This document shows, in pieces, positions 13,400 through 32,314 of a stretch of DNA of 64,000 nucleotides (its first letter is position 1; every line of letters starts with the position of its first letter). The DNA lies in the IMG/VR virus record IMGVR_UViG_3300043120_000039, positions 32,001 to 96,000 of that record. The stretch is one strand, 5' to 3'. The position numbers and the translations under genes were made by a program. Below the pieces are notes generated by a model. It did no database searches, had not been told where the DNA came from, and was given only the letters and a program-made list of their open reading frames with translations. Origin of the DNA: a virus (taxonomy: Duplodnaviria > Caudoviricetes).

Positions 13400-14773
13400 T
13401 TATCGCATAGATTGTTTCATGTCATGATACTTTGTGCGGACAGATGTTGTTGGGATAGGGACTGGTCTGTGCACTTTGTTTATTTTTATTTGATGGAATG
13501 CATCAGCAGTGGCGTCACAGATATCGTCGTGGACACCAGATATACGCACACTTGGGTCAAATATTTCCAACTCTTCATGGAAAGTTTCATTCCAATCTGC
13601 CTTAACCACACTAACCATCCTATTTTCTGCAATTACTGCAAAAGGTTCAAATGCTTTTAGTTTACGGTTTTTAGTGTTTGATGTCTTCATACGCTTAACT
13701 AAAACACCTGCTGCTGATATATCTCCAATCATCTGGTCACAAGCTGCTTTTCCGCTCGACGATGGATCTTCTGGGATATAGGTTGTAACATTACCCCACT
13801 CTTCTTGATCACGCAACCCAGTTTGTATAATTTCATCCACCACACCGGCATACCTTTTCCTGAACCTAACCACATCAAGGATGTATATATGATGATCCTT
13901 ACCTTGACCCATAAGAACACCAACAGTATAATCAGGGTCTGGGTATTTTTCAGAAGGAATACTCCCAGCCAAGTCATAAGCACGTACTATTTTAACAAGG
14001 TCAGGTACATCATGAAGCATTACTGTTTCAGTCCACTCCCTCTTATATAAACCTGCTGCTGTTTCCTGTACAAGCCATGCACCGTTAAGTAGCCTCATCC
14101 TTTCAATACGAGGTAAGGATTTAAGACGTGAGACGTACAATGGATCATGCTCCAAAAGAATTGGATTGTCTTCACAAGTTGCTGAAATAAAACGAAAACT
14201 CATAGGCCCAGAATCTTCGCCATATTGTGAAACAAGTTCTTCTCTTGAATCACCCCAGATCATGTCATTACCTTGCCGGATAAACCACTTTTCTACACCA
14301 TCCATCTCTGGTTTAGGTATTCCATAGTTCTTTTCATCGAGATAACCTGCCGCCTGCAGCCATTTTCTTAGGTAGCAATTAAATTCTGGGTTGCACGTAA
14401 TCTTCATAACAGGCTTCATATTTGCCATAGTACGCATACGTGATATAAAATAAACCACCTGAGATTCAAGCATCTGCTGACCCTCATCAATGAGGAACGC
14501 TGCTACCTGCCAGCCTTGAAAATTGTGCTTATCGCTTTCTTTCTCGCAGTGACACATCTTAATTTCGGCACCGCTAGGAAATTTAAACTCCATTGTAGAA
14601 GGTTTGACATGTACAGAAGGACAAGCTTCTTTATACATATTCTGTGCCGTATCTAAAAGACCACCCACACCTTTAATCATCGGGGTTGTTCTTCGAACCA
14701 TTACCCCCCTAAATTCTGGCATATGAACATATTGAAGCATATCCATAATACCAAGATAGGATTTACCTGAACC
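13400..14773 (-). CDS. terL: terminase large subunit, exon 2
   Basis: begins GSGKS (completes Walker A); Walker B FLIDE, TCNP, nuclease AYDLA and HDDICDA. Confidence 0.93.
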   Translation of the reverse strand, partial: GSGKSYLGIMDMLQYVHMPEFRGVMVRRTTPMIKGVGGLLDTAQNMYKEACPSVHVKPSTMEFKFPSGAEIKMCHCEKESDKHNFQGWQVAAFLIDEGQQMLESQVVYFISRMRTMANMKPVMKITCNPEFNCYLRKWLQAAGYLDEKNYGIPKPEMDGVEKWFIRQGNDMIWGDSREELVSQYGEDSGPMSFRFISATCEDNPILLEHDPLYVSRLKSLPRIERMRLLNGAWLVQETAAGLYKREWTETVMLHDVPDLVKIVRAYDLAGSIPSEKYPDPDYTVGVLMGQGKDHHIYILDVVRFRKRYAGVVDEIIQTGLRDQEEWGNVTTYIPEDPSSSGKAACDQMIGDISAAGVLVKRMKTSNTKNRKLKAFEPFAVIAENRMVSVVKADWNETFHEELEIFDPSVRISGVHDDICDATADAFHQIKINKVHRPVPIPTTSVRTKYHDMKQSMR

Positions 14774-15032
14774 CTTTTATCTTACAGTCGCTACACTGTT
14801 TCTAATGTTTCCACTAGGATCGGACTATATCTTCCGTCTTATAGACAGCCTCCTGTTTCGAAATCGCTTGATTCCTACTCTACTCCATTATATACTTTGT
14901 ATATTGTTTCGATAGTCTCTGAACGTTGAATCACTTAATGTGAAACCTTCGCTGCTGATTGCCCTCGGCTTAACGTTAGGGTTCCCAGACAATTAAAGAG
15001 GTATATTAAAGCGCAACCAGTTTGGTAAATTT
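14774..15032 (-). mobile_element. ORF-less group I intron (259 nt) in the terL Walker A
   Basis: P AAUUGUCUGGGAA, Q AAUCAGCAGC, R GUUCAGAGACUA, S AAGAUAUAGUCC; exon ends in U, intron ends in G; splicing restores GGAA|GSGKS. Confidence 0.93.
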
Positions 15033-15119
15033 AGCAGCGCCACCAAAAACTGTAATATCAGATTTTGATTGTAAGAACATAGCCTGCTTCTGAGAAGCAG
15101 GACCAAGTTTTTTAGTCAT
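15033..15119 (-). CDS. terL: terminase large subunit, exon 1 (29 codons)
   Basis: MTKKLGPASQKQAMFLQSKSDITVFGGAA; GAGG SD upstream; missing from ORF track. Confidence 0.9.
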
Positions 15120-15969
15120 AAATTATTTCCTCTGGCAATTCGTGCTCACATATCTCGAAATTGTTATTCTTTGCAATATTCTCTTTTAAATCCATTAACT
15201 GTAGGTTATATTCACAGTGTAATCCACAAACTAAAGGGTGTGTTAATGGTATGATGTGGTCTATGGATTGATTGAAATATTGAGCTTCAGTATAGAAAGA
15301 TTTTATGATATCTTGGTCAGCCCAACAAGGTGTTGCATTTTTAATGGAAGCTCTCCTCTTGGAAGCATAATAGGCTATTTTATCTTTATTTTTAGCTCTC
15401 CATAATTTAGCTTTCTCTGCAATCAACTCTTTATTAGCATGATAATATCTATTTGCTCTTTCCCTAGTAAGTTCTGGGTATCTTTCTCTGTACCTTTTAC
15501 AAGATTCTTTAACCTTATCAGGGTTCTTTCTACGATACTCTCTATCTATTTCACGGTAATGTTCAGGATTCTCCCAGTAACGCTCCCTTTTTCTTCTTGA
15601 TACATCTTCTCGATGTTCTTTCTGATAATTACTAGTTCTCTCTATCACTTTCTCACTATTTTGCTCATAATAATCCCTATTTGAAGAATTATAACAATCT
15701 TTACACCTATCCCTCAAACCAGTTGGTGTATCTGACCTCTTATGAAATTCTGAATTATGTTTTTCAGTGTTACAGTCAGAACATATTTTATACTCTGGAA
15801 TATTCTTCTCTGAATCAATATACTCTTGACGTTTAGCTTTCTCCCTTCTTTTTGTACAACCTTTACACGGCTGTCTTACTCGACCTGTAGTACTTTTATT
15901 ATTTTTATAGAAATCTTCTCTTGGTTTATTTTCCTTACAGGAATTACAGGTAAACATATCTTCTTCCAA
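15112..15969 (-). CDS. free-standing HNH endonuclease with zinc fingers
   Basis: CxxC repeats; IDHIIPL...CGLHCEYNLQ...N..KNN. Confidence 0.88.
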   Translation of the reverse strand: MEEDMFTCNSCKENKPREDFYKNNKSTTGRVRQPCKGCTKRREKAKRQEYIDSEKNIPEYKICSDCNTEKHNSEFHKRSDTPTGLRDRCKDCYNSSNRDYYEQNSEKVIERTSNYQKEHREDVSRRKRERYWENPEHYREIDREYRRKNPDKVKESCKRYRERYPELTRERANRYYHANKELIAEKAKLWRAKNKDKIAYYASKRRASIKNATPCWADQDIIKSFYTEAQYFNQSIDHIIPLTHPLVCGLHCEYNLQLMDLKENIAKNNNFEICEHELPEEIIYD

Positions 15970-16635: not shown

Positions 16636-17031
16636 TTATAGTGGAAACACTAACTCATCACCGTCACGATCTTCTTGATAGGACTTGAGTGCTTCTTCCA
16701 TCTTATCAATATCTTTAACCGATGACCAATCAATACGGTTATGCATATCCTTAACTGGTACAAAATAACTGGCATCTTGAAAAGTCGGCTTGTTATTTGA
16801 TAATCCAAATTTAAGGTCATATGGGCGAATATAATCGCTACCCCCACTGCATTCTTCTAGATAAATGTACTCACATTCATCTTCATGGAAAGATACCTTA
16901 TTTTCTCCAACAAAGTCTTTTAAGTCTTGATAACCACTATCAAATGGTTCAAACACCAGACCACTTTCATCTACTTCACTATAACTCTCAAGTTTCTTAG
17001 CTTTAAATATATAGTTATAATAACTCATCAT
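16636..17031 (-). CDS. hypothetical protein
   Basis: ORF overlapping upstream stop. Confidence 0.6.
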   Translation of the reverse strand: MMSYYNYIFKAKKLESYSEVDESGLVFEPFDSGYQDLKDFVGENKVSFHEDECEYIYLEECSGGSDYIRPYDLKFGLSNNKPTFQDASYFVPVKDMHNRIDWSSVKDIDKMEEALKSYQEDRDGDELVFPL

Positions 17032-17507
17032 TCTTCTCCTAAAATTTCAATTGCTTGTTCAGTGTACTCTTTCGTCAAACCTTCCTCACCTTGAATATGA
17101 ACAAAGTTGTTTCGTTGACTGTACAACATATCTGAGTCATCGTCAAGAATTACATAATCATAAAAGTCATAATGGTGACATCCAAGTAAGTTTTGATTAT
17201 CTTGAATCCATTTTAAGATTTCATTACCTCTGACGACAAACTTATCTGTGTAAGAGTCTGTCTTACCAATAACTTCACCTTTAACACCCATATGTGTTAG
17301 AAGGTATTGAAGTCTTTCTACTGATTCACCTAACCTCCAAGTAGAAGACACTACAATCTTAACACCTGTGCGTTTAAGAATCCTATTCAAATTCCCAACA
17401 AGATGTGGTTGATATGGGTAATATTCTCCGTCAATTTCAGGGATATATTCACTTAAAATAGAATCGCTATTAAAAACACCATCAATGTCAAGGAAGATTA
17501 TTTTCAT
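17028..17507 (-). CDS. HAD-family phosphatase (Swiss-army-knife RNA-repair-like HAD)
   Basis: FLDIDGV, VVSSTWR, RGNEI, YVILDD. Confidence 0.85.
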   Translation of the reverse strand: MKIIFLDIDGVFNSDSILSEYIPEIDGEYYPYQPHLVGNLNRILKRTGVKIVVSSTWRLGESVERLQYLLTHMGVKGEVIGKTDSYTDKFVVRGNEILKWIQDNQNLLGCHHYDFYDYVILDDDSDMLYSQRNNFVHIQGEEGLTKEYTEQAIEILGEE

Positions 17508-19123: not shown

Positions 19124-19696
19124 ATGTTTGGAAGAAAATTTAACACAGAAGAACAAGATATTTGGGTAACAAGTGATTTACATTTTGACCATGGTAATAT
19201 TTTACACTTCTGTCCAAAAACACGTAATTTCAAGAATACTAATTCCATGAATGAGGCTTTGATTACCGAATGGAATACTAAGGTTAAACCAGAAGATTAC
19301 ATTATCCATCTTGGAGATTTCTGCTTTAAAGGTGTGGAGGTAACAAGTAGCTTCTTACAACGCTTGAATGGTAAGAAAATTATGATCCATGGAAATCATG
19401 ACAAATCACTACGTAATGGTATTGCTGATGGTAAGTTTGGTATTGTCTGGAAAGGTGATTATCTTGAGATACAGATTGATAAACAAAAAGTAGTTCTATG
19501 CCACTACCCCCTCACCACTTGGAATAATGCTGGGCGGGGAAGTTTACAATTGTTCGGCCACTGTCACGGGTCTCTTCCTGAACCTAAAGGTAGACAAATT
19601 GATGTTGGGTATGATAATCTTGGTGAAATTAAGAACATTAAAGAAATTATGAAGATTCTTAACAAGAAAGAAATTTATTCACCTGACCAACACTAG
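19124..19696 (+). CDS. calcineurin-like metallophosphoesterase
   Basis: SDLHF, HLGDF, GNHD, HYP, GHCH. Confidence 0.92.
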   Translation: MFGRKFNTEEQDIWVTSDLHFDHGNILHFCPKTRNFKNTNSMNEALITEWNTKVKPEDYIIHLGDFCFKGVEVTSSFLQRLNGKKIMIHGNHDKSLRNGIADGKFGIVWKGDYLEIQIDKQKVVLCHYPLTTWNNAGRGSLQLFGHCHGSLPEPKGRQIDVGYDNLGEIKNIKEIMKILNKKEIYSPDQH

Positions 19697-19706
19697 GAGA
19701 ACTAAT

Positions 19707-20600
19707 ATGAAATTAGATGTATCTGACCTTATCGAAAAGGGTCTAGTTATTAAGAAAACTTACACCGAAGGTAAATATAAAGGTTTGTCAGTCCTTAAAT
19801 ATCATCGAAAGGTTTTCTACAATAATCTGTGGCATATTGACGAGCGACTGCTTGAATGCCGAGGAACTGTTGTAGATGAAGCTTGGAATGTTATTGTACT
19901 GCCTTTCCGTAAGGTGTTTAATTTTGGTGAGAATGGAACAACTGTTGACCCTGAGCAAGTGGTGATCTGTCCTCGTAAAGTAAACGGTTATATGCTTTCT
20001 GTAACTTATAATAAAGCTTATGGTTATATTGTATCTACAACAGGAAGTCTTGATTCTGAGTATGTTAAACTTGGTGAAGAGTGGCTAGAAACAATTAACA
20101 AGGATGCTCTATATGAAGAAGGTGTTACCCATATATTTGAAGTTTGCGATAAACGTGACCCTCACATTGTAGAGGAAAATGAAGGTATTTATCTAATAGG
20201 ACGTAGGTATCATGACACAGGTAAAATGTCATCAGAATATTTTCTAAATGGGCTATCCAAGGCTGCTGAATGTAGGCGTGGTGAGTTGTGGGTAGGTAAA
20301 TTTAAAGATCTACCTACTGACGTTAATCATGAGGGGTATATGGTTAAGGATTACTTCACAGAAGAGGTTCTTTGTAAATTAAAATCACCACACTACCTCT
20401 CTAAGAAAGCAATTATGCGTCTTGGTAAAGCTAAAGTGGACATTTTGTTTGATAAACCAGACTTGTTTAAACAACGAATTGATGAAGAATTTTATGAGTT
20501 CGTAGACTATCTTGCAGAAAATGTTGACAAGGAAGTATGGCGTTCTTATAATGATCAACAACGACGAGAATTTATTGAGAGGTATTATTATGGAGAATAA
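19707..20600 (+). CDS. RNA ligase 1 (T4 Rnl1-like)
   Basis: ECRG, KVFNFGE, KVNG, FE, EGY, KLKS. Confidence 0.88.
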   Translation: MKLDVSDLIEKGLVIKKTYTEGKYKGLSVLKYHRKVFYNNLWHIDERLLECRGTVVDEAWNVIVLPFRKVFNFGENGTTVDPEQVVICPRKVNGYMLSVTYNKAYGYIVSTTGSLDSEYVKLGEEWLETINKDALYEEGVTHIFEVCDKRDPHIVEENEGIYLIGRRYHDTGKMSSEYFLNGLSKAAECRRGELWVGKFKDLPTDVNHEGYMVKDYFTEEVLCKLKSPHYLSKKAIMRLGKAKVDILFDKPDLFKQRIDEEFYEFVDYLAENVDKEVWRSYNDQQRREFIERYYYGE

Positions 20601-20601
20601 A

Positions 20602-21018
20602 ATGACTAAGAAAACTTTATATATTCTAAGAGGACTACCATCTAGCGGAAAGACAACTTTAGCTAAAACCTTGGAAATTTCCTTACAGGATTGTATTGCA
20701 TATGCAGCAGATGATTTTCATTATGATGACCAAGGGAATTATAATTGGAAACCAGAAAATGTTCATTTAGCTCATAAGTGGTGTCAAGACAGTGTTATGG
20801 TTTGTATGGATGCTGGTGTAGCTAATATTGTGGTTCATAATACATCGACATCTGAAAAAGAACTAAAACCATATACATCTATGGCTAATGCTTATGGATA
20901 TAAAGTTGTAAGTCTGATTATAGAAAAACGTCACAGTAATAAGAACAATCACAATGTTCCAGAAGATGTTGTTAATAAAATGGAAGAACGTTTACAGCAT
21001 AGTTTAAAATTACGTTGA
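20602..21018 (+). CDS. polynucleotide kinase-like P-loop protein
   Basis: LRGLPSSGKTT, ADD, HNVP. Confidence 0.85.
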   Translation: MTKKTLYILRGLPSSGKTTLAKTLEISLQDCIAYAADDFHYDDQGNYNWKPENVHLAHKWCQDSVMVCMDAGVANIVVHNTSTSEKELKPYTSMANAYGYKVVSLIIEKRHSNKNNHNVPEDVVNKMEERLQHSLKLR

Positions 21019-21846: not shown

Positions 21847-22389
21847 TTATTGGTTCTTTGATTTTCTCAAAAGTTCAGCAGTGATTTCATTTTTATCTTT
21901 GCTACCTTTTGAAGAACCAAAAAAGAATTGAATAATACCGCTTATAATAGTCGCGAGAAGAAAACCTAGCGTGGTATCAGCGAACCTTACAGCGCTTTCT
22001 GGTACAGTGAAAAATGTAATACCTACCAGATAAATCATTGCGAAAATAGACCAAGCAGAAGCAAAATAGTAGATAAACCTTTTACTGAAAATATCCTCTT
22101 GACGTAAAGCTTCCTTCTGCATATCACGAGCATCTTTTTTATCTGCTAGATACATTTCGTCAAGACGGTGTTTGTCAGCAAGAACAGCTTCTTGAAATTT
22201 CAATGCTACATTTGGGTCTGTACTGATTGCTTCTAATGCTTTATTCTTATCAGAGATACCAGTAACGCTTGATGCAATGTCTAATACTTCTGATGTCATT
22301 TGTTCTGCTTTGTCACCACCAAACCATCCAGCAACATCTGGTAATAGTTTAACTAGTGAGGGGATTGCCATTGCTAATAATGGTGCCAT
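21847..22389 (-). CDS. putative holin (3TM/GTA-holin-like)
   Basis: D..DAR..Q motif, two C-terminal TM helices, FFFGSSKGS. Confidence 0.7.
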   Translation of the reverse strand: MAPLLAMAIPSLVKLLPDVAGWFGGDKAEQMTSEVLDIASSVTGISDKNKALEAISTDPNVALKFQEAVLADKHRLDEMYLADKKDARDMQKEALRQEDIFSKRFIYYFASAWSIFAMIYLVGITFFTVPESAVRFADTTLGFLLATIISGIIQFFFGSSKGSKDKNEITAELLRKSKNQ

Positions 22390-22469: not shown

Positions 22470-22500
22470 AATAAAACCCCACGCAAAGGTGAGGTTGTTT
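22470..22500 (-). terminator. terminator after Hsp20 gene
   Basis: AACCTCACC-loop-GTGGGGTT followed by T tract on minus strand. Confidence 0.7.
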
Positions 22501-22513
22501 ATTAAATCAACTT

Positions 22514-22930
22514 TTATTCAATACTAATAGTTTTTGGAAGTTCTTCTTCTGGGATAATCTTGTTAAGATAAATCTTAAGTAACCCATCTTCAAGTTTACT
22601 TGAACAAACTTCAACGCCTTTTTGAAGAGTAAAACTTCGAGTGAATTTACTACGTTTGATTGTAGATTCAAGAGTTGATTCATAACCGTCTTCAACTTGA
22701 TCAGAAGGTTTACCTTTTACAGTAAGAATATTCTTCTCAAGCTTAATTTCAATATCTCCTCTCTTATATCCTGCAAGTGCAAGTTCAATAACATATTTAT
22801 CTGATTTGAACTTTTTGATTGAATAAGGTGGGAAGATGGAATTGTTTGTGAATCTTAAAGTATCATTTGCATGATTACCAAAAGAAAAATCAAACAGTGT
22901 GAATAGGTCACGTTCAAAAGTAGAAAGCAT
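22514..22930 (-). CDS. small heat-shock protein (Hsp20/IbpA-like)
   Basis: FPPYSI, IELALAGY, FTRSFTL, LEDGLLKI. Confidence 0.92.
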   Translation of the reverse strand: MLSTFERDLFTLFDFSFGNHANDTLRFTNNSIFPPYSIKKFKSDKYVIELALAGYKRGDIEIKLEKNILTVKGKPSDQVEDGYESTLESTIKRSKFTRSFTLQKGVEVCSSKLEDGLLKIYLNKIIPEEELPKTISIE

Positions 22931-22996
22931 AATAAGTCTCCTTATTTATGTTAATGTTTATGAGCAATATCTCTATTGTCCCAGGTTAAGTGAAAG

Positions 22997-23629
22997 AAAC
23001 CCTCTTACAAAACCATGTAGCTCACAATCTTGATAAGAGGGTTTGGTTAAAATCGGCACGTCTACCTAGACATTCACAGTGTCTTACCTCTGGCTCCGAA
23101 GAGTCTCAAACTTGCCTTGCGGCTAACATTACCACTAAACCTTATAACGTAGTCCGTGGTCAAGACTCCGGTTTTACTCTCAACGAATCCAATATCATGC
23201 AAAAATATCGGAGGAGAAAGTACCATACTTCAAAGTGTTGCCTCACCTTCTCATAACGGCTATGGTTAACCTGATTTCTAAGACCAATCGTGAAATATTG
23301 AAGTCACAGTTTACTCTGCCAAGTCGTGATTGATGTCTATTTAAACTCGCTTCATCTACTTGGAGCAACCCGAGTTGTCAGCCTTCAATAAGACAAGGTT
23401 AGTGACTGACACGCTTCCTTGAATAAAGTAACACCTTAAACCAAAATCTCTTGTGAACAACGATGGTAGTCGTGAGAATTGTCCAGATCTTGTGTGAAAA
23501 GTGTTAAAATTAAAAGCTCTATTGATACAATCATCCGGTAGCGACACATTCCGATTATATCCATGAGTTGAGCCACTTCTCATGCGCCTTGCTATAACAA
23601 CTTCGGTCCCAAGGTCGAATCTTTTCTAT
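22997..23629 (-). ncRNA. large (~600 nt) highly structured non-coding RNA, ROOL/GOLLD-class candidate
   Basis: own promoter and terminator, elevated GC, more than 12 helices, GCAA and UUCG tetraloops, no credible ORF. Confidence 0.75.
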
Positions 23630-23635
23630 ACTTTA

Positions 23636-23665
23636 ATCTTAGCAGTTATTGTTTACTTTTGTCAA
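23636..23665 (-). promoter_or_regulatory. sigma70-type promoter of the large ncRNA
   Basis: TTGACA-18-TAAGAT with extended -10 TG. Confidence 0.75.
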
Positions 23666-31424: not shown

Positions 31425-32314
31425 TCATAAGTTCATCTCCTCTAAAGTATAAACATAGTCAACAATATCCTGCACAGAAATATTACTGTCTTTCCAAGAC
31501 TTACAACGGCTACCTTCACCTGAATCCGCAAGGTTTTGATTAGTTTGATTATGTTTATTCTCAAAATTCTTCAACATTTTAACAATCTGATACGTCTCAG
31601 GAAATTTATCCATCATCTTCTGAACATCAGGATGTGGTGGAGCTGGATAAGGTGTTTTCATAATTATACTCCCTTAGTTAATCTTAGTTTACCAATAAAA
31701 CCTTTAGCAATATTAAAGAAGCTGTGAGTTTTCTTATTCTTGCTATGTTCTTTCTCTAAGGTAAGCATACATGACTTAATAGCATAATCCCAACCTTTCT
31801 GGAATTGTTTATACCGTTCTTCGGCGCGCTGGATACCTTCTTTTGTCATAGGTAACATATGTGCCTCTGATCTACGCCATGCATGATAACATGCACTCTC
31901 GCCTTCTTCTTTATCAAAATTATCCATTACTTTCCTCCATATCTTCAATCTCAAAACAATCAATAAATGCAAACTTTCCATCATCTGCAAGAAACTCTTT
32001 CAAGTAAGTAATAATGTCACCATCATAATACTTCTGCAGAGATTCCTCATCAATAAAGAAGCCTTTGCTGTAAGATAATTTTAGGTTAATGTAATCTTTG
32101 CTCACTTAATCATCCTCCAAATAATAGTATCTACAATTTCAACAATTTCTTCATCTTCCAGAATGTCTGGCATACTAGTATCATACTCTGAAAGGTACAA
32201 CCCACTTTCTGTCCAAACTTCTTCATCCAAAAGGTATTCTCCATAGAAGTGTGCTGTTGTGTCATCTTCATAGAAATTACCTTGCCATAAATGTTCATAT
32301 TTAGATTTACTCAT
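31425..32314 (-). CDS. four small hypothetical ORFs (31425-31661, 31664-~31927, 31920-32105, 32102-32314)
   Basis: overlapping co-oriented ORFs with SD. Confidence 0.55.

Follow-up and report, generated by a model that had tools for sequence, protein, structure and literature searches.

GOLLD, ROOL and the long non-coding RNA (lncRNA) of phage ICP1 are abundant, large and structured phage RNAs, and we know of no function for any of them. Here, we analysed a predicted non-coding RNA of ~635 nt in a Caudoviricetes genome (IMG/VR record IMGVR_UViG_3300043120_000039), of which a stretch of 64,000 nucleotides (positions 32,001 to 96,000 of the record) is called the window below. The RNA runs on the minus strand from ~23629 to ~22993; with its promoter and 3' hairpin included, the region under study is 22992-23665. 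Taking identity, non-coding nature and architecture jointly, we consider it probable that this RNA is the non-coding counterpart of the ICP1 lncRNA, with the domain architecture mapped here.

The ICP1 lncRNA was described as the most abundant transcript of its phage, an RNA of ~800 nt from the 1-kb interval that separates gp139 from gp140 (Barth et al. 2020 mSystems, PMC7567579 section 9). According to a later article, it is robustly expressed throughout infection (Boyd et al. 2021, PMC9040626), such an RNA is already noted upstream of lysis genes in related phages (section 3.3), and TeaA (Gp137) is the validated holin of ICP1 (section 2.4). A preprint (Dunham et al. 2022, bioRxiv 10.1101/2022.04.08.487710) reports a northern blot for the lncRNA and its conservation in 67 of 67 ICP1 isolates, and describes chimeras in which it is ligated to many transcripts of the phage and the satellite; a sponge role is put forward there as a hypothesis. 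Our literature search found no structure or function paper on this RNA later than the preprint, subscription journals being outside its coverage.

Like the ICP1 lncRNA, the window RNA is set in an ORF-less gap (ORF, open reading frame) on the gene strand, and the lysis cluster follows downstream. The ICP1 sequence that matches it falls in the ORF-less gap between ORF140 and ORF139, which is the site of the published transcript. We mapped the family with iterated nhmmer profiles of pieces of the window RNA, run against 22 related loci and the window itself (23 loci); an all-against-all BLAST bin clustering had over-merged the sequences and was replaced. The elements are the following:

23636-23665, minus strand: sigma-70-type promoter, TTGACA (23665-23660), 18 nt, TGn-TAAGAT (23641-23636); match 10/12
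23507-23629, minus strand: domain A, 5' leader, in 11/23 loci including ICP1
23429-23506, minus strand: domain B, extended three-helix hairpin, in 16/23 loci
23375-23428, minus strand: domain C1, hairpin GUCAGUC/GGCUGAC (23410-23404/23383-23377) with a conserved loop, in five sequences
23280-23376, minus strand: domain C2, AACUCG/CGAGUU and CCAAGU/ACUUGG, competing or knotted helices; structure unsettled
23188-23279, minus strand: domains C3 and C4, C3 being found in five loci
23131-23170, minus strand: domain D, hairpin and pseudoknot, covarying in 11 sequences
23045-23128, minus strand: domain E, also found in the 3' part of the ICP1 lncRNA
22992-23044, minus strand: long 3' hairpin with U-rich tail, likely terminator and 3' end; the base of the stem covaries in vB_CoeS_P1
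22475-22496, minus strand: canonical intrinsic terminator, the homologue of that at the 3' end of the ICP1 lncRNA

In ICP1, domain A is found directly after ORF140 (positions 730-828 of the ICP1 locus, L004; nhmmer 5e-16) and domain E towards the other end (L004 1501-1571; nhmmer 1e-23; 83% identity). Between them lies a D-type element that has the same architecture made of different pairs. The predicted ICP1 RNA extends from ~722 to ~1612 of L004, which fits the published ~800 nt inside the 1-kb gap. Furthermore, the protein encoded downstream of hsp20 in the window (180 aa) is 65% identical over 147 aa to ICP1 ORF137. Because locus, promoter, both ends and the downstream anchor agree, we regard the two RNAs as counterparts. 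In both, a TeaA-type holin gene lies downstream, and they share the promoter hexamers and their spacing, domain A, the D-type pseudoknot, domain E and a homologous terminator; tRNAs are missing from both phages. In contrast, they differ in length (~635 nt in the window; ~890 nt predicted and ~800 nt published for ICP1), and their middle parts are unrelated in sequence, the window harbouring domains B and C1 to C4 and ICP1 only a weak, reduced B.

The promoter overlaps the 3' end of an upstream 63-aa ORF. Promoter-like sites are common in this AT-rich DNA (34 in 5 kb versus 20.1 expected), and the weight of the call thus comes from conservation across phages, the hexamer match alone not being rare. 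ICP1 has the identical TTGACA-18-TAAGAT with TGn, 14-15 nt ahead of domain A as in the window, and phage 11895-B1 has a perfect TTGACA-18-TATAAT at an equal distance before domain A. Cross-phage sequence homology begins at the predicted transcription start. Conservation in these two phages therefore lends support to the TTGACA-18-(TG)TAAGAT promoter named in the original prediction, which was made from the sequence of the window alone.

At the 3' end, an 11-bp stem formed by AAACCCUCUUA (23044-23034) and UAAGAGGGUUU (23007-22997), followed by UUUCUUUC, encloses a second hairpin of 10 bp. This long hairpin is not on the list of our terminator scan, whose loop limit was 8. The stem that had been placed at 22997-23044 as a terminator is present, and in vB_CoeS_P1 a compensatory change at the base of the hairpin keeps the pairing. 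The canonical terminator that follows domain E in ICP1 matches positions 22496-22475 of the window, not the hairpin at 23044-22997. Since this ICP1-type terminator lies after hsp20, the ancestral terminator is preceded in the window, unlike in ICP1, by an additional hairpin and by an Hsp20 cassette. From the arrangement of these sequences, hsp20 and the preceding hairpin (22475-23044, minus strand) look like a cassette inserted between domain E and the ICP1-type terminator.

The window RNA is a string of separately folding domains, namely A, B, C1 to C4, D with its pseudoknot, E and the 3' hairpin. Domain A has three helices, CCUUG/CAAGG (23614-23610/23591-23587), CAUGAG/CUCAUG (23584-23579/23567-23562) and GAUAUAAUC/GAUUGUAUC (23561-23553 with 23532-23524), and its 3' end is a near-invariant GAGCUUUUAAUUUU (23519-23506). 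In the seven sequences compared, 91.5% of the cells are paired and eight of the 29 pairs are changed on both sides (0/500 shuffles), with 24-49% paired in the slid-partner control. The invariant GAGCUUUU in this tail may resemble rrn boxA-like or put-like antitermination elements, a resemblance of which we made no use.

Domain B consists of the helices P1 (UAACACUU/AAGGUGUUA), P2 (AAGAUCU/AGAUUUU) and P3 (GGACAAU/GUUGUUC), with conserved internal loops and an apical CUACCAU (23469-23463). For P2 and P3 together, in 15 sequences, 94.9% of the cells are paired and nine of the 13 pairs are changed on both sides (36 cells); none of 500 shuffles reached this covariation score, and sliding the partner left 38-59% paired. 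The closing helix P1 recurs in 15 of 15 sequences, its letters differing among them (RNAduplex z -1.6 to -6.5).

Domain D combines a 6-bp stem, CGGAGU/ACUACG (23170-23165/23153-23148), with a pseudoknot between the loop ACCAC (23160-23156) and a GUGGU further downstream (23135-23131). Here, 95.9% of the cells are paired in 11 sequences and eight of the 11 pairs are changed on both sides (0/500 shuffles; slid partner, 22-51%). The pseudoknot appears as UUGC/GCAA and GUCAC/GUGAC in relatives and as ACCUC/GAGGU in ICP1; ICP1 and phage 1.063.O form this fold with CUUGG/CCAAG. Each of these covariation counts is drawn from a small set of related sequences, and their relatedness is left in place by the shuffle control. 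The slid-partner control is the safer test, and domains A, B and D all pass it.

The variable middle part was analysed in the same way. The C1 stem is replaced by GUCAACC/GGUUGAC in qdvp001 and R16F, a compensatory change. C2 is shared only with VnaP (87% identical) and IBT_VpB-34 and is devoid of informative variation. C3 comprises ACCAUA/UAUGGU (23266-23261/23227-23222) and an inner helix, AAGGUG/CACUUU, with the compensatory variants AUCAUA/UAUGAU and GCCAG/CUGGU, and the C4 hairpin, UCCGAUAU/AUAUUGGA (23212-23205 with 23195-23188), covaries in vB_CoeS_P1. Domain E contains GCC-GCAA-GGC, CUC-UUCG-GAG, AGACA-CUGUGAA-UGUCU and GGU-AGACGU-GCC; in ICP1, GCC/GGC becomes ACC/GGU, and GGU/GCC becomes GGG/CCC.

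All 13 helices listed in the original prediction are present in the sequence. Nine of them keep their pairing through compensatory changes: CAUGAG/CUCAUG, GAUAUAAUC/GAUUGUAUC, UAACACUU/AAGGUGUUA, AAGAUCU/AGAUUUU, GUCAG/CUGAC, ACCAUA/UAUGGU, UCCGAUAU/AUAUUGGA, ACCAC/GUGGU (as the pseudoknot) and GCC-GCAA-GGC. AACUCG/CGAGUU, CUC-UUCG-GAG and AGACA/UGUCU are without informative variation, and the last has one mismatch in ICP1. For the proposed long-range AAAUC.GG/CCGAUUU closure, the letters are there and the pairing found no support.

Two smaller features of the RNA may be mentioned. AGACA-CUGUGAA-UGUCU (23068-23084, minus strand) has a 5-bp stem and a 7-nt loop, the loop being identical in ICP1 and the stem differing by one mismatch; we take this to be the format of an anticodon stem-loop, with GUG at the anticodon positions, possibly by coincidence. 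The motif GCUACC/CUACC occurs in five copies in the ICP1 RNA (L004 725-1612) and once each in the apical regions of A and B of the window. No inference was drawn from a 2.6-fold enrichment of CTACC in the pooled family RNAs, as much of it comes from homologous copies of A and B.

We next consider coding content. The longest ORFs inside 22990-23665 are of 88 aa on the plus strand and 75 aa on the minus strand, and open frames of 41-88 aa are thus at hand for the view that the region encodes small proteins, for example from the 75-aa frame at 23356-23583. However, when the five longest frames were compared with the 22 related loci by tblastn, only fragments that track nucleotide homology were obtained, and neither the 75-aa frame nor any other was found conserved in these loci. 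Stops interrupt window frames in L005, L006, L002 and L024, a 470-nt insertion splits the 75-aa ORF in L006, and this ORF has no match to a Pfam or PHROG family. Substitutions in the homologues occur as pairs and are not codon-like. We therefore regard a protein-coding function as barely conceivable, in line with the initial claim that the region lacks a credible ORF. The region is also GC-richer than its surroundings, as claimed (0.40-0.42 over 23000-23599, against 0.29-0.33 in the flanks and 0.35 in the whole 124,995-bp genome). Folding of the minus-strand RNA gave a minimum free energy z-score of -1.71 (0/20 shuffles equally good), and that of the plus strand gave -0.30 (8/20). A non-coding RNA gene with its own predicted promoter, in a lytic-type phage of 125 kb, is thus supported.

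The region matches 94 of 50,697 phage records by blastn, 92 of Vibrio and two of Shewanella phages, which agrees with the probable gammaproteobacterial lytic phage proposed at first. Among the matches listed, the genomes are of 120-140 kb and the matches are always partial (70-290 nt); among 40 matches listed, 38 fall in unannotated DNA. The two Shewanella phage records, which are outside the matches listed, match part of the region. Taken together, the searches gave hits in roughly 140 GenBank vibriophage records. The closest genome is that of Vibrio phage vB_CoeS_P1 (91% identity over 28% of a 20-kb query). The matching sequence is located in gaps without ORFs, which measure 0.7-1.0 kb in vB_CoeS_P1, qdvp001, VnaP and ICP1 and up to 2 kb in other relatives.

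The search for homologues in related phages yielded a colinear family. The order of the elements present is constant in the 23 loci: A, then tRNA and homing-endonuclease genes where they occur, B, variable C1 to C4, D, E and the terminator. Domain D was detected in 12 of the 23 loci by profile, and in 14 when ICP1 and 1.063.O, recognized by structure, are included. Nine of the 23 loci carry tRNA genes on the RNA strand. The embedded tRNAs (Arg-TCT, Arg-CCT, Asn, Met and Gly) are located after A or before B, and in L006, L013 and L026 the closing helix of domain B starts within ~6 nt of the 3' end of the last tRNA.

Close relatives show how this family varies. VnaP and PWH3a-P1, which infect Vibrio natriegens, each have domains A, B and C3, with C2 in addition in VnaP. 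In L006, from a near-identical phage contig, promoter and domain A are 99% identical to the window, 470 nt with tRNA-Arg and tRNA-Asn are present exactly at the A/B junction, and after B, unrelated sequence replaces C1 to E and hsp20. Contigs of metagenome relatives break off from the window at 23623, 23511/23507, 23437-23414 and 23246, all of which are domain borders. One metagenome relative agrees with the window in the promoter and the 3' part, with 602 other letters in place of 23437-23623 and 1208 other letters in place of 23246-23414. Segments have thus been exchanged at domain borders, the ends being shared with ICP1 and the middle being different. Genes for HNH or T5orf172 endonucleases are found within the RNA/tRNA locus in R16F, 11895-B1, 277E43-1 and 1.063.O (L010, L015, L028 and L029), and homing endonucleases may drive the swapping of segments at these borders. 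Domain A is followed after 10 nt by the start of an ORF in P018-4 (L025, 2055-2496), and by one tRNA and then an ORF in 10AMN (L008, 1206-2087). This suggests that domain A is a general 5' leader module.

Outside this group of phages, the family is almost nowhere to be found in IMG/VR or the JGI metagenomes by motif scans. Scanning the genomes of 185,579 species with the D and A motifs revealed no family member. IMG/VR scans with the A, D and B motifs returned qdvp001, one near-identical contig and four chance matches, the metagenome scan with the D motif returned one contig (L030), and an IMG/VR search anchored on the holin protein gave only three loci. Loci L020 to L023, considered as candidates, were not confirmed by the domain profiles.

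We also compared the RNA with known families. The cmscan analysis with Rfam 15 of the whole window at gathering score identified only a group I intron at 14801-15058 and nothing in the RNA region. With E up to 10, the 1.1-kb region gave three chance matches (DUF3800-VIII, sroD and ncr952), far below their thresholds, and no match to ROOL, GOLLD, OLE, HEARO, tmRNA or RNase P. The same search of 15 related loci with E up to 0.1 gave 11 matches to tRNAs and, outside the RNA locus, one to GcvB below threshold. ARAGORN predicted no tRNA or tmRNA gene in the window or in the 124,995-bp genome; the absence of a tRNA cloverleaf and of a group I core from the RNA, stated originally, agrees with these results.

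The proposal of a divergent ROOL or GOLLD, made along with the prediction, fared less well. The likeness is real in that all are large phage-borne RNAs of a similar size class, and the homologous locus contains tRNA genes in nine of 23 cases, which is the genomic habit of both families according to PMC5737381; such proximity is a habit of ROOL and GOLLD rather than their defining trait. However, no covariance model of ROOL (RF03087) or GOLLD (RF01998) matches the window, the 1.1-kb region or the 15 related loci. The hosts of the window family are Gammaproteobacteria, and its domain content varies among close relatives. In addition, ROOL has six multistem junctions as well as three pseudoknots (PMC5737381), whereas only serial hairpins and one pseudoknot are supported here, full-length homologues for long-range pairs being lacking. 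Membership in either family is accordingly very unlikely. The other proposal, a new large RNA class, holds in so far as the family is absent from Rfam; it does not hold for novelty, as the ICP1 member was already published as an abundant lncRNA (PMC7567579).

Several observations weigh against the identification with the ICP1 lncRNA or against the architecture proposed with it. Sequence similarity to ICP1 spans only ~200 of the 635 nt, the B match in ICP1 is weak and reduced (E 0.004 in a single-locus search), and a very abundant transcript is known for ICP1 only, where expression was measured, not for this phage; a search of sequencing runs listed no RNA run that contains the window sequence. 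The 3' hairpin departs from a textbook terminator, as its interior is long and its U run is interrupted. The whole-molecule fold beats shuffles only modestly (z -1.71, 20 shuffles), no multi-helix junction or long-range contact is supported, and C2 and the long-range closure are unverified; the RNA may therefore not be one integrated 'ornate' fold. Finally, because tRNA processing must cut A from B-E in the tRNA-bearing relatives, a single long molecule is not required for function.

As to how the counterpart of the ICP1 lncRNA might work, we envisage that host RNA polymerase transcribes it from early infection and that its structured ends would shield it from RNases and let it accumulate, with A capping the 5' end and D, E and the hairpin capping the 3' end. 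The conserved ends would perhaps also help the polymerase through the RNA. The inner domains and the tRNAs would be the working cargo, and the RNA would act in trans as a stable RNA, either staying whole or being cut at A/U-rich junctions, as would have to happen in tRNA-bearing relatives. Its final role might be to bind or sequester proteins or RNAs, a tentative suggestion made by analogy with the sponge or decoy idea raised for ICP1. Somewhat more speculatively, the family may represent a third kind of large tRNA-associated phage RNA beside GOLLD and ROOL, confined to ICP1-like Vibrio phages, in which protective end domains flank swappable inner domains (B, C1 to C4 and tRNAs) that serve as decoys or sponges against host defence or satellite RNAs or proteins.

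Other readings of the locus deserve attention. The transcript might be a precursor from which several small stable RNAs are cut (for example A alone, B, and D-E), as in a tRNA operon, to which we give limited but not negligible credence. The domains fold separately and are swapped singly, A occurs without the rest in P018-4 and 10AMN, tRNA processing in L006, L013 and L026 would free domain B, the helix of which starts within ~6 nt of the tRNA, and the A/B junction of the window is an A/U-rich single strand. Such processing would resemble that in phage T4, the tRNA region of which yields stable RNAs (species 1 and 2) of ~120-140 nt that are processed, non-coding and part of the same transcription unit as phage tRNAs. 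The likeness is one of tRNA-linked stable non-coding RNAs with a homing-endonuclease gene in the region; the T4 RNAs differ in being short and processed. Nonetheless, the ICP1 coverage is described as one ~800-nt transcript, for which there is also a northern blot, and the window has no tRNA to force cutting.

A long cis-acting leader or attenuator, in which regulated read-through of the 3' hairpin would control how Hsp20 and the lysis genes are expressed, appears unlikely. The position upstream of the lysis cluster in ICP1 and relatives, also noted in PMC9040626, is what such a role would call for, as are the ORF that starts 10 nt after domain A in P018-4 and the presence of only a weak promoter-like site (9/12) before hsp20. 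However, the ICP1 RNA ends in a canonical terminator and, according to PMC9040626, is far more abundant than its neighbours and on throughout infection, while the lysis genes are late; moreover, the downstream gene varies among phages while A, B and D persist. A purely cis role is less likely since ICP1 terminates this RNA efficiently and on a schedule that differs from that of the lysis genes. Even less plausible is a functionless remnant of a tRNA cluster, or debris of homing-endonuclease recombination. The strongly mosaic content and the tRNA and HNH or T5orf172 genes at the same locus in relatives would be explained in this manner, but compensatory changes maintain the helices of A, B and D across widely diverged phages, and the RNA is retained in phages devoid of tRNAs and in all 67 ICP1 isolates (10.1101/2022.04.08.487710), and 82 of 94 records are at least 99% identical. 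In addition, the 1.1-kb region has no tRNA-like match at E up to 10. A replication origin at the locus was considered and dropped, as the theta origin of ICP1 is near 60 kb and its rolling-circle origin near a genome end (PMC7145576), both away from the lncRNA.

The genes surrounding the RNA are the following:

22514-22930, minus strand: Hsp20 gene (Pfam HSP20 1.7e-14, phrog_432)
21847-22389, minus strand: TeaA-like holin gene, which anchors the synteny with ICP1 (product 65% identical to ICP1 ORF137 over 147 aa)
17028-17507, minus strand, and 19124-19696, 19707-20600 and 20512-21018, plus strand: RNA-repair-type gene set, 2-6 kb from the RNA gene

ICP1 has no Hsp20 cassette here, and the cassette is absent from 19 of the 22 related loci. 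Only PWH3a-P1 and IBT_VpB-34 have it, with hsp20 at the same place as in the window, L025 being counted in neither group. The TeaA-like holin gene is common to the window, ICP1 and two near-identical IMG/VR contigs; in other relatives, genes for membrane proteins are found downstream. Small ORFs, a PTH2-like gene and a NADAR gene lie upstream of the RNA on the same strand. The Hsp20, PTH2 and NADAR neighbours that had been taken as a hint of function are thus all present, but the PTH2 match (20.2 bits) is below the Pfam cut-off of 23, and most relatives lack the Hsp20 cassette. Downstream, past the lysis genes and on the other strand, are genes for a metallophosphoesterase, a T4 Rnl1-type RNA ligase and a P-loop (AAA_33) kinase, with a 'Swiss Army Knife' RNA repair HAD domain further downstream. 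The RNA therefore sits among genes acting on RNA ends, tRNA or ADP-ribosylation, which fits, without showing it, a contest over the translation apparatus.

The group I intron (14801-15058, minus strand; Rfam 72.1 bits, E 2.4e-16) is separate from the RNA and is flanked by ORFs at 13400-14746 and 15112-15969. The ORF just downstream of the intron carries terminase large-subunit domains from profile position 70, and Pfam gave no match for the 285-aa ORF on the upstream side. From this arrangement, the terminase gene looks to be split by the intron.

Thus, the ICP1 RNA belongs to a family in which the order of domains is fixed, the covarying helices include a pseudoknot, and many members have embedded tRNA genes. 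The link to tRNAs seen for GOLLD and ROOL was stated to be absent for ICP1 in the 2020 paper (PMC7567579). The covariation-backed domain map, the pseudoknot, the embedded tRNAs and the module exchange are in none of the papers found by our literature search. The family could be added to Rfam, and the domain map provides precise targets for deletion, swapping and pull-down. If it is indeed a third kind of tRNA-associated phage RNA, its RNA-repair, NADAR and PTH2-like neighbours would join the same contest over the translation apparatus. As some members of the family infect the harmless and fast-growing Vibrio natriegens, the function of a large phage RNA would be testable in a convenient system.

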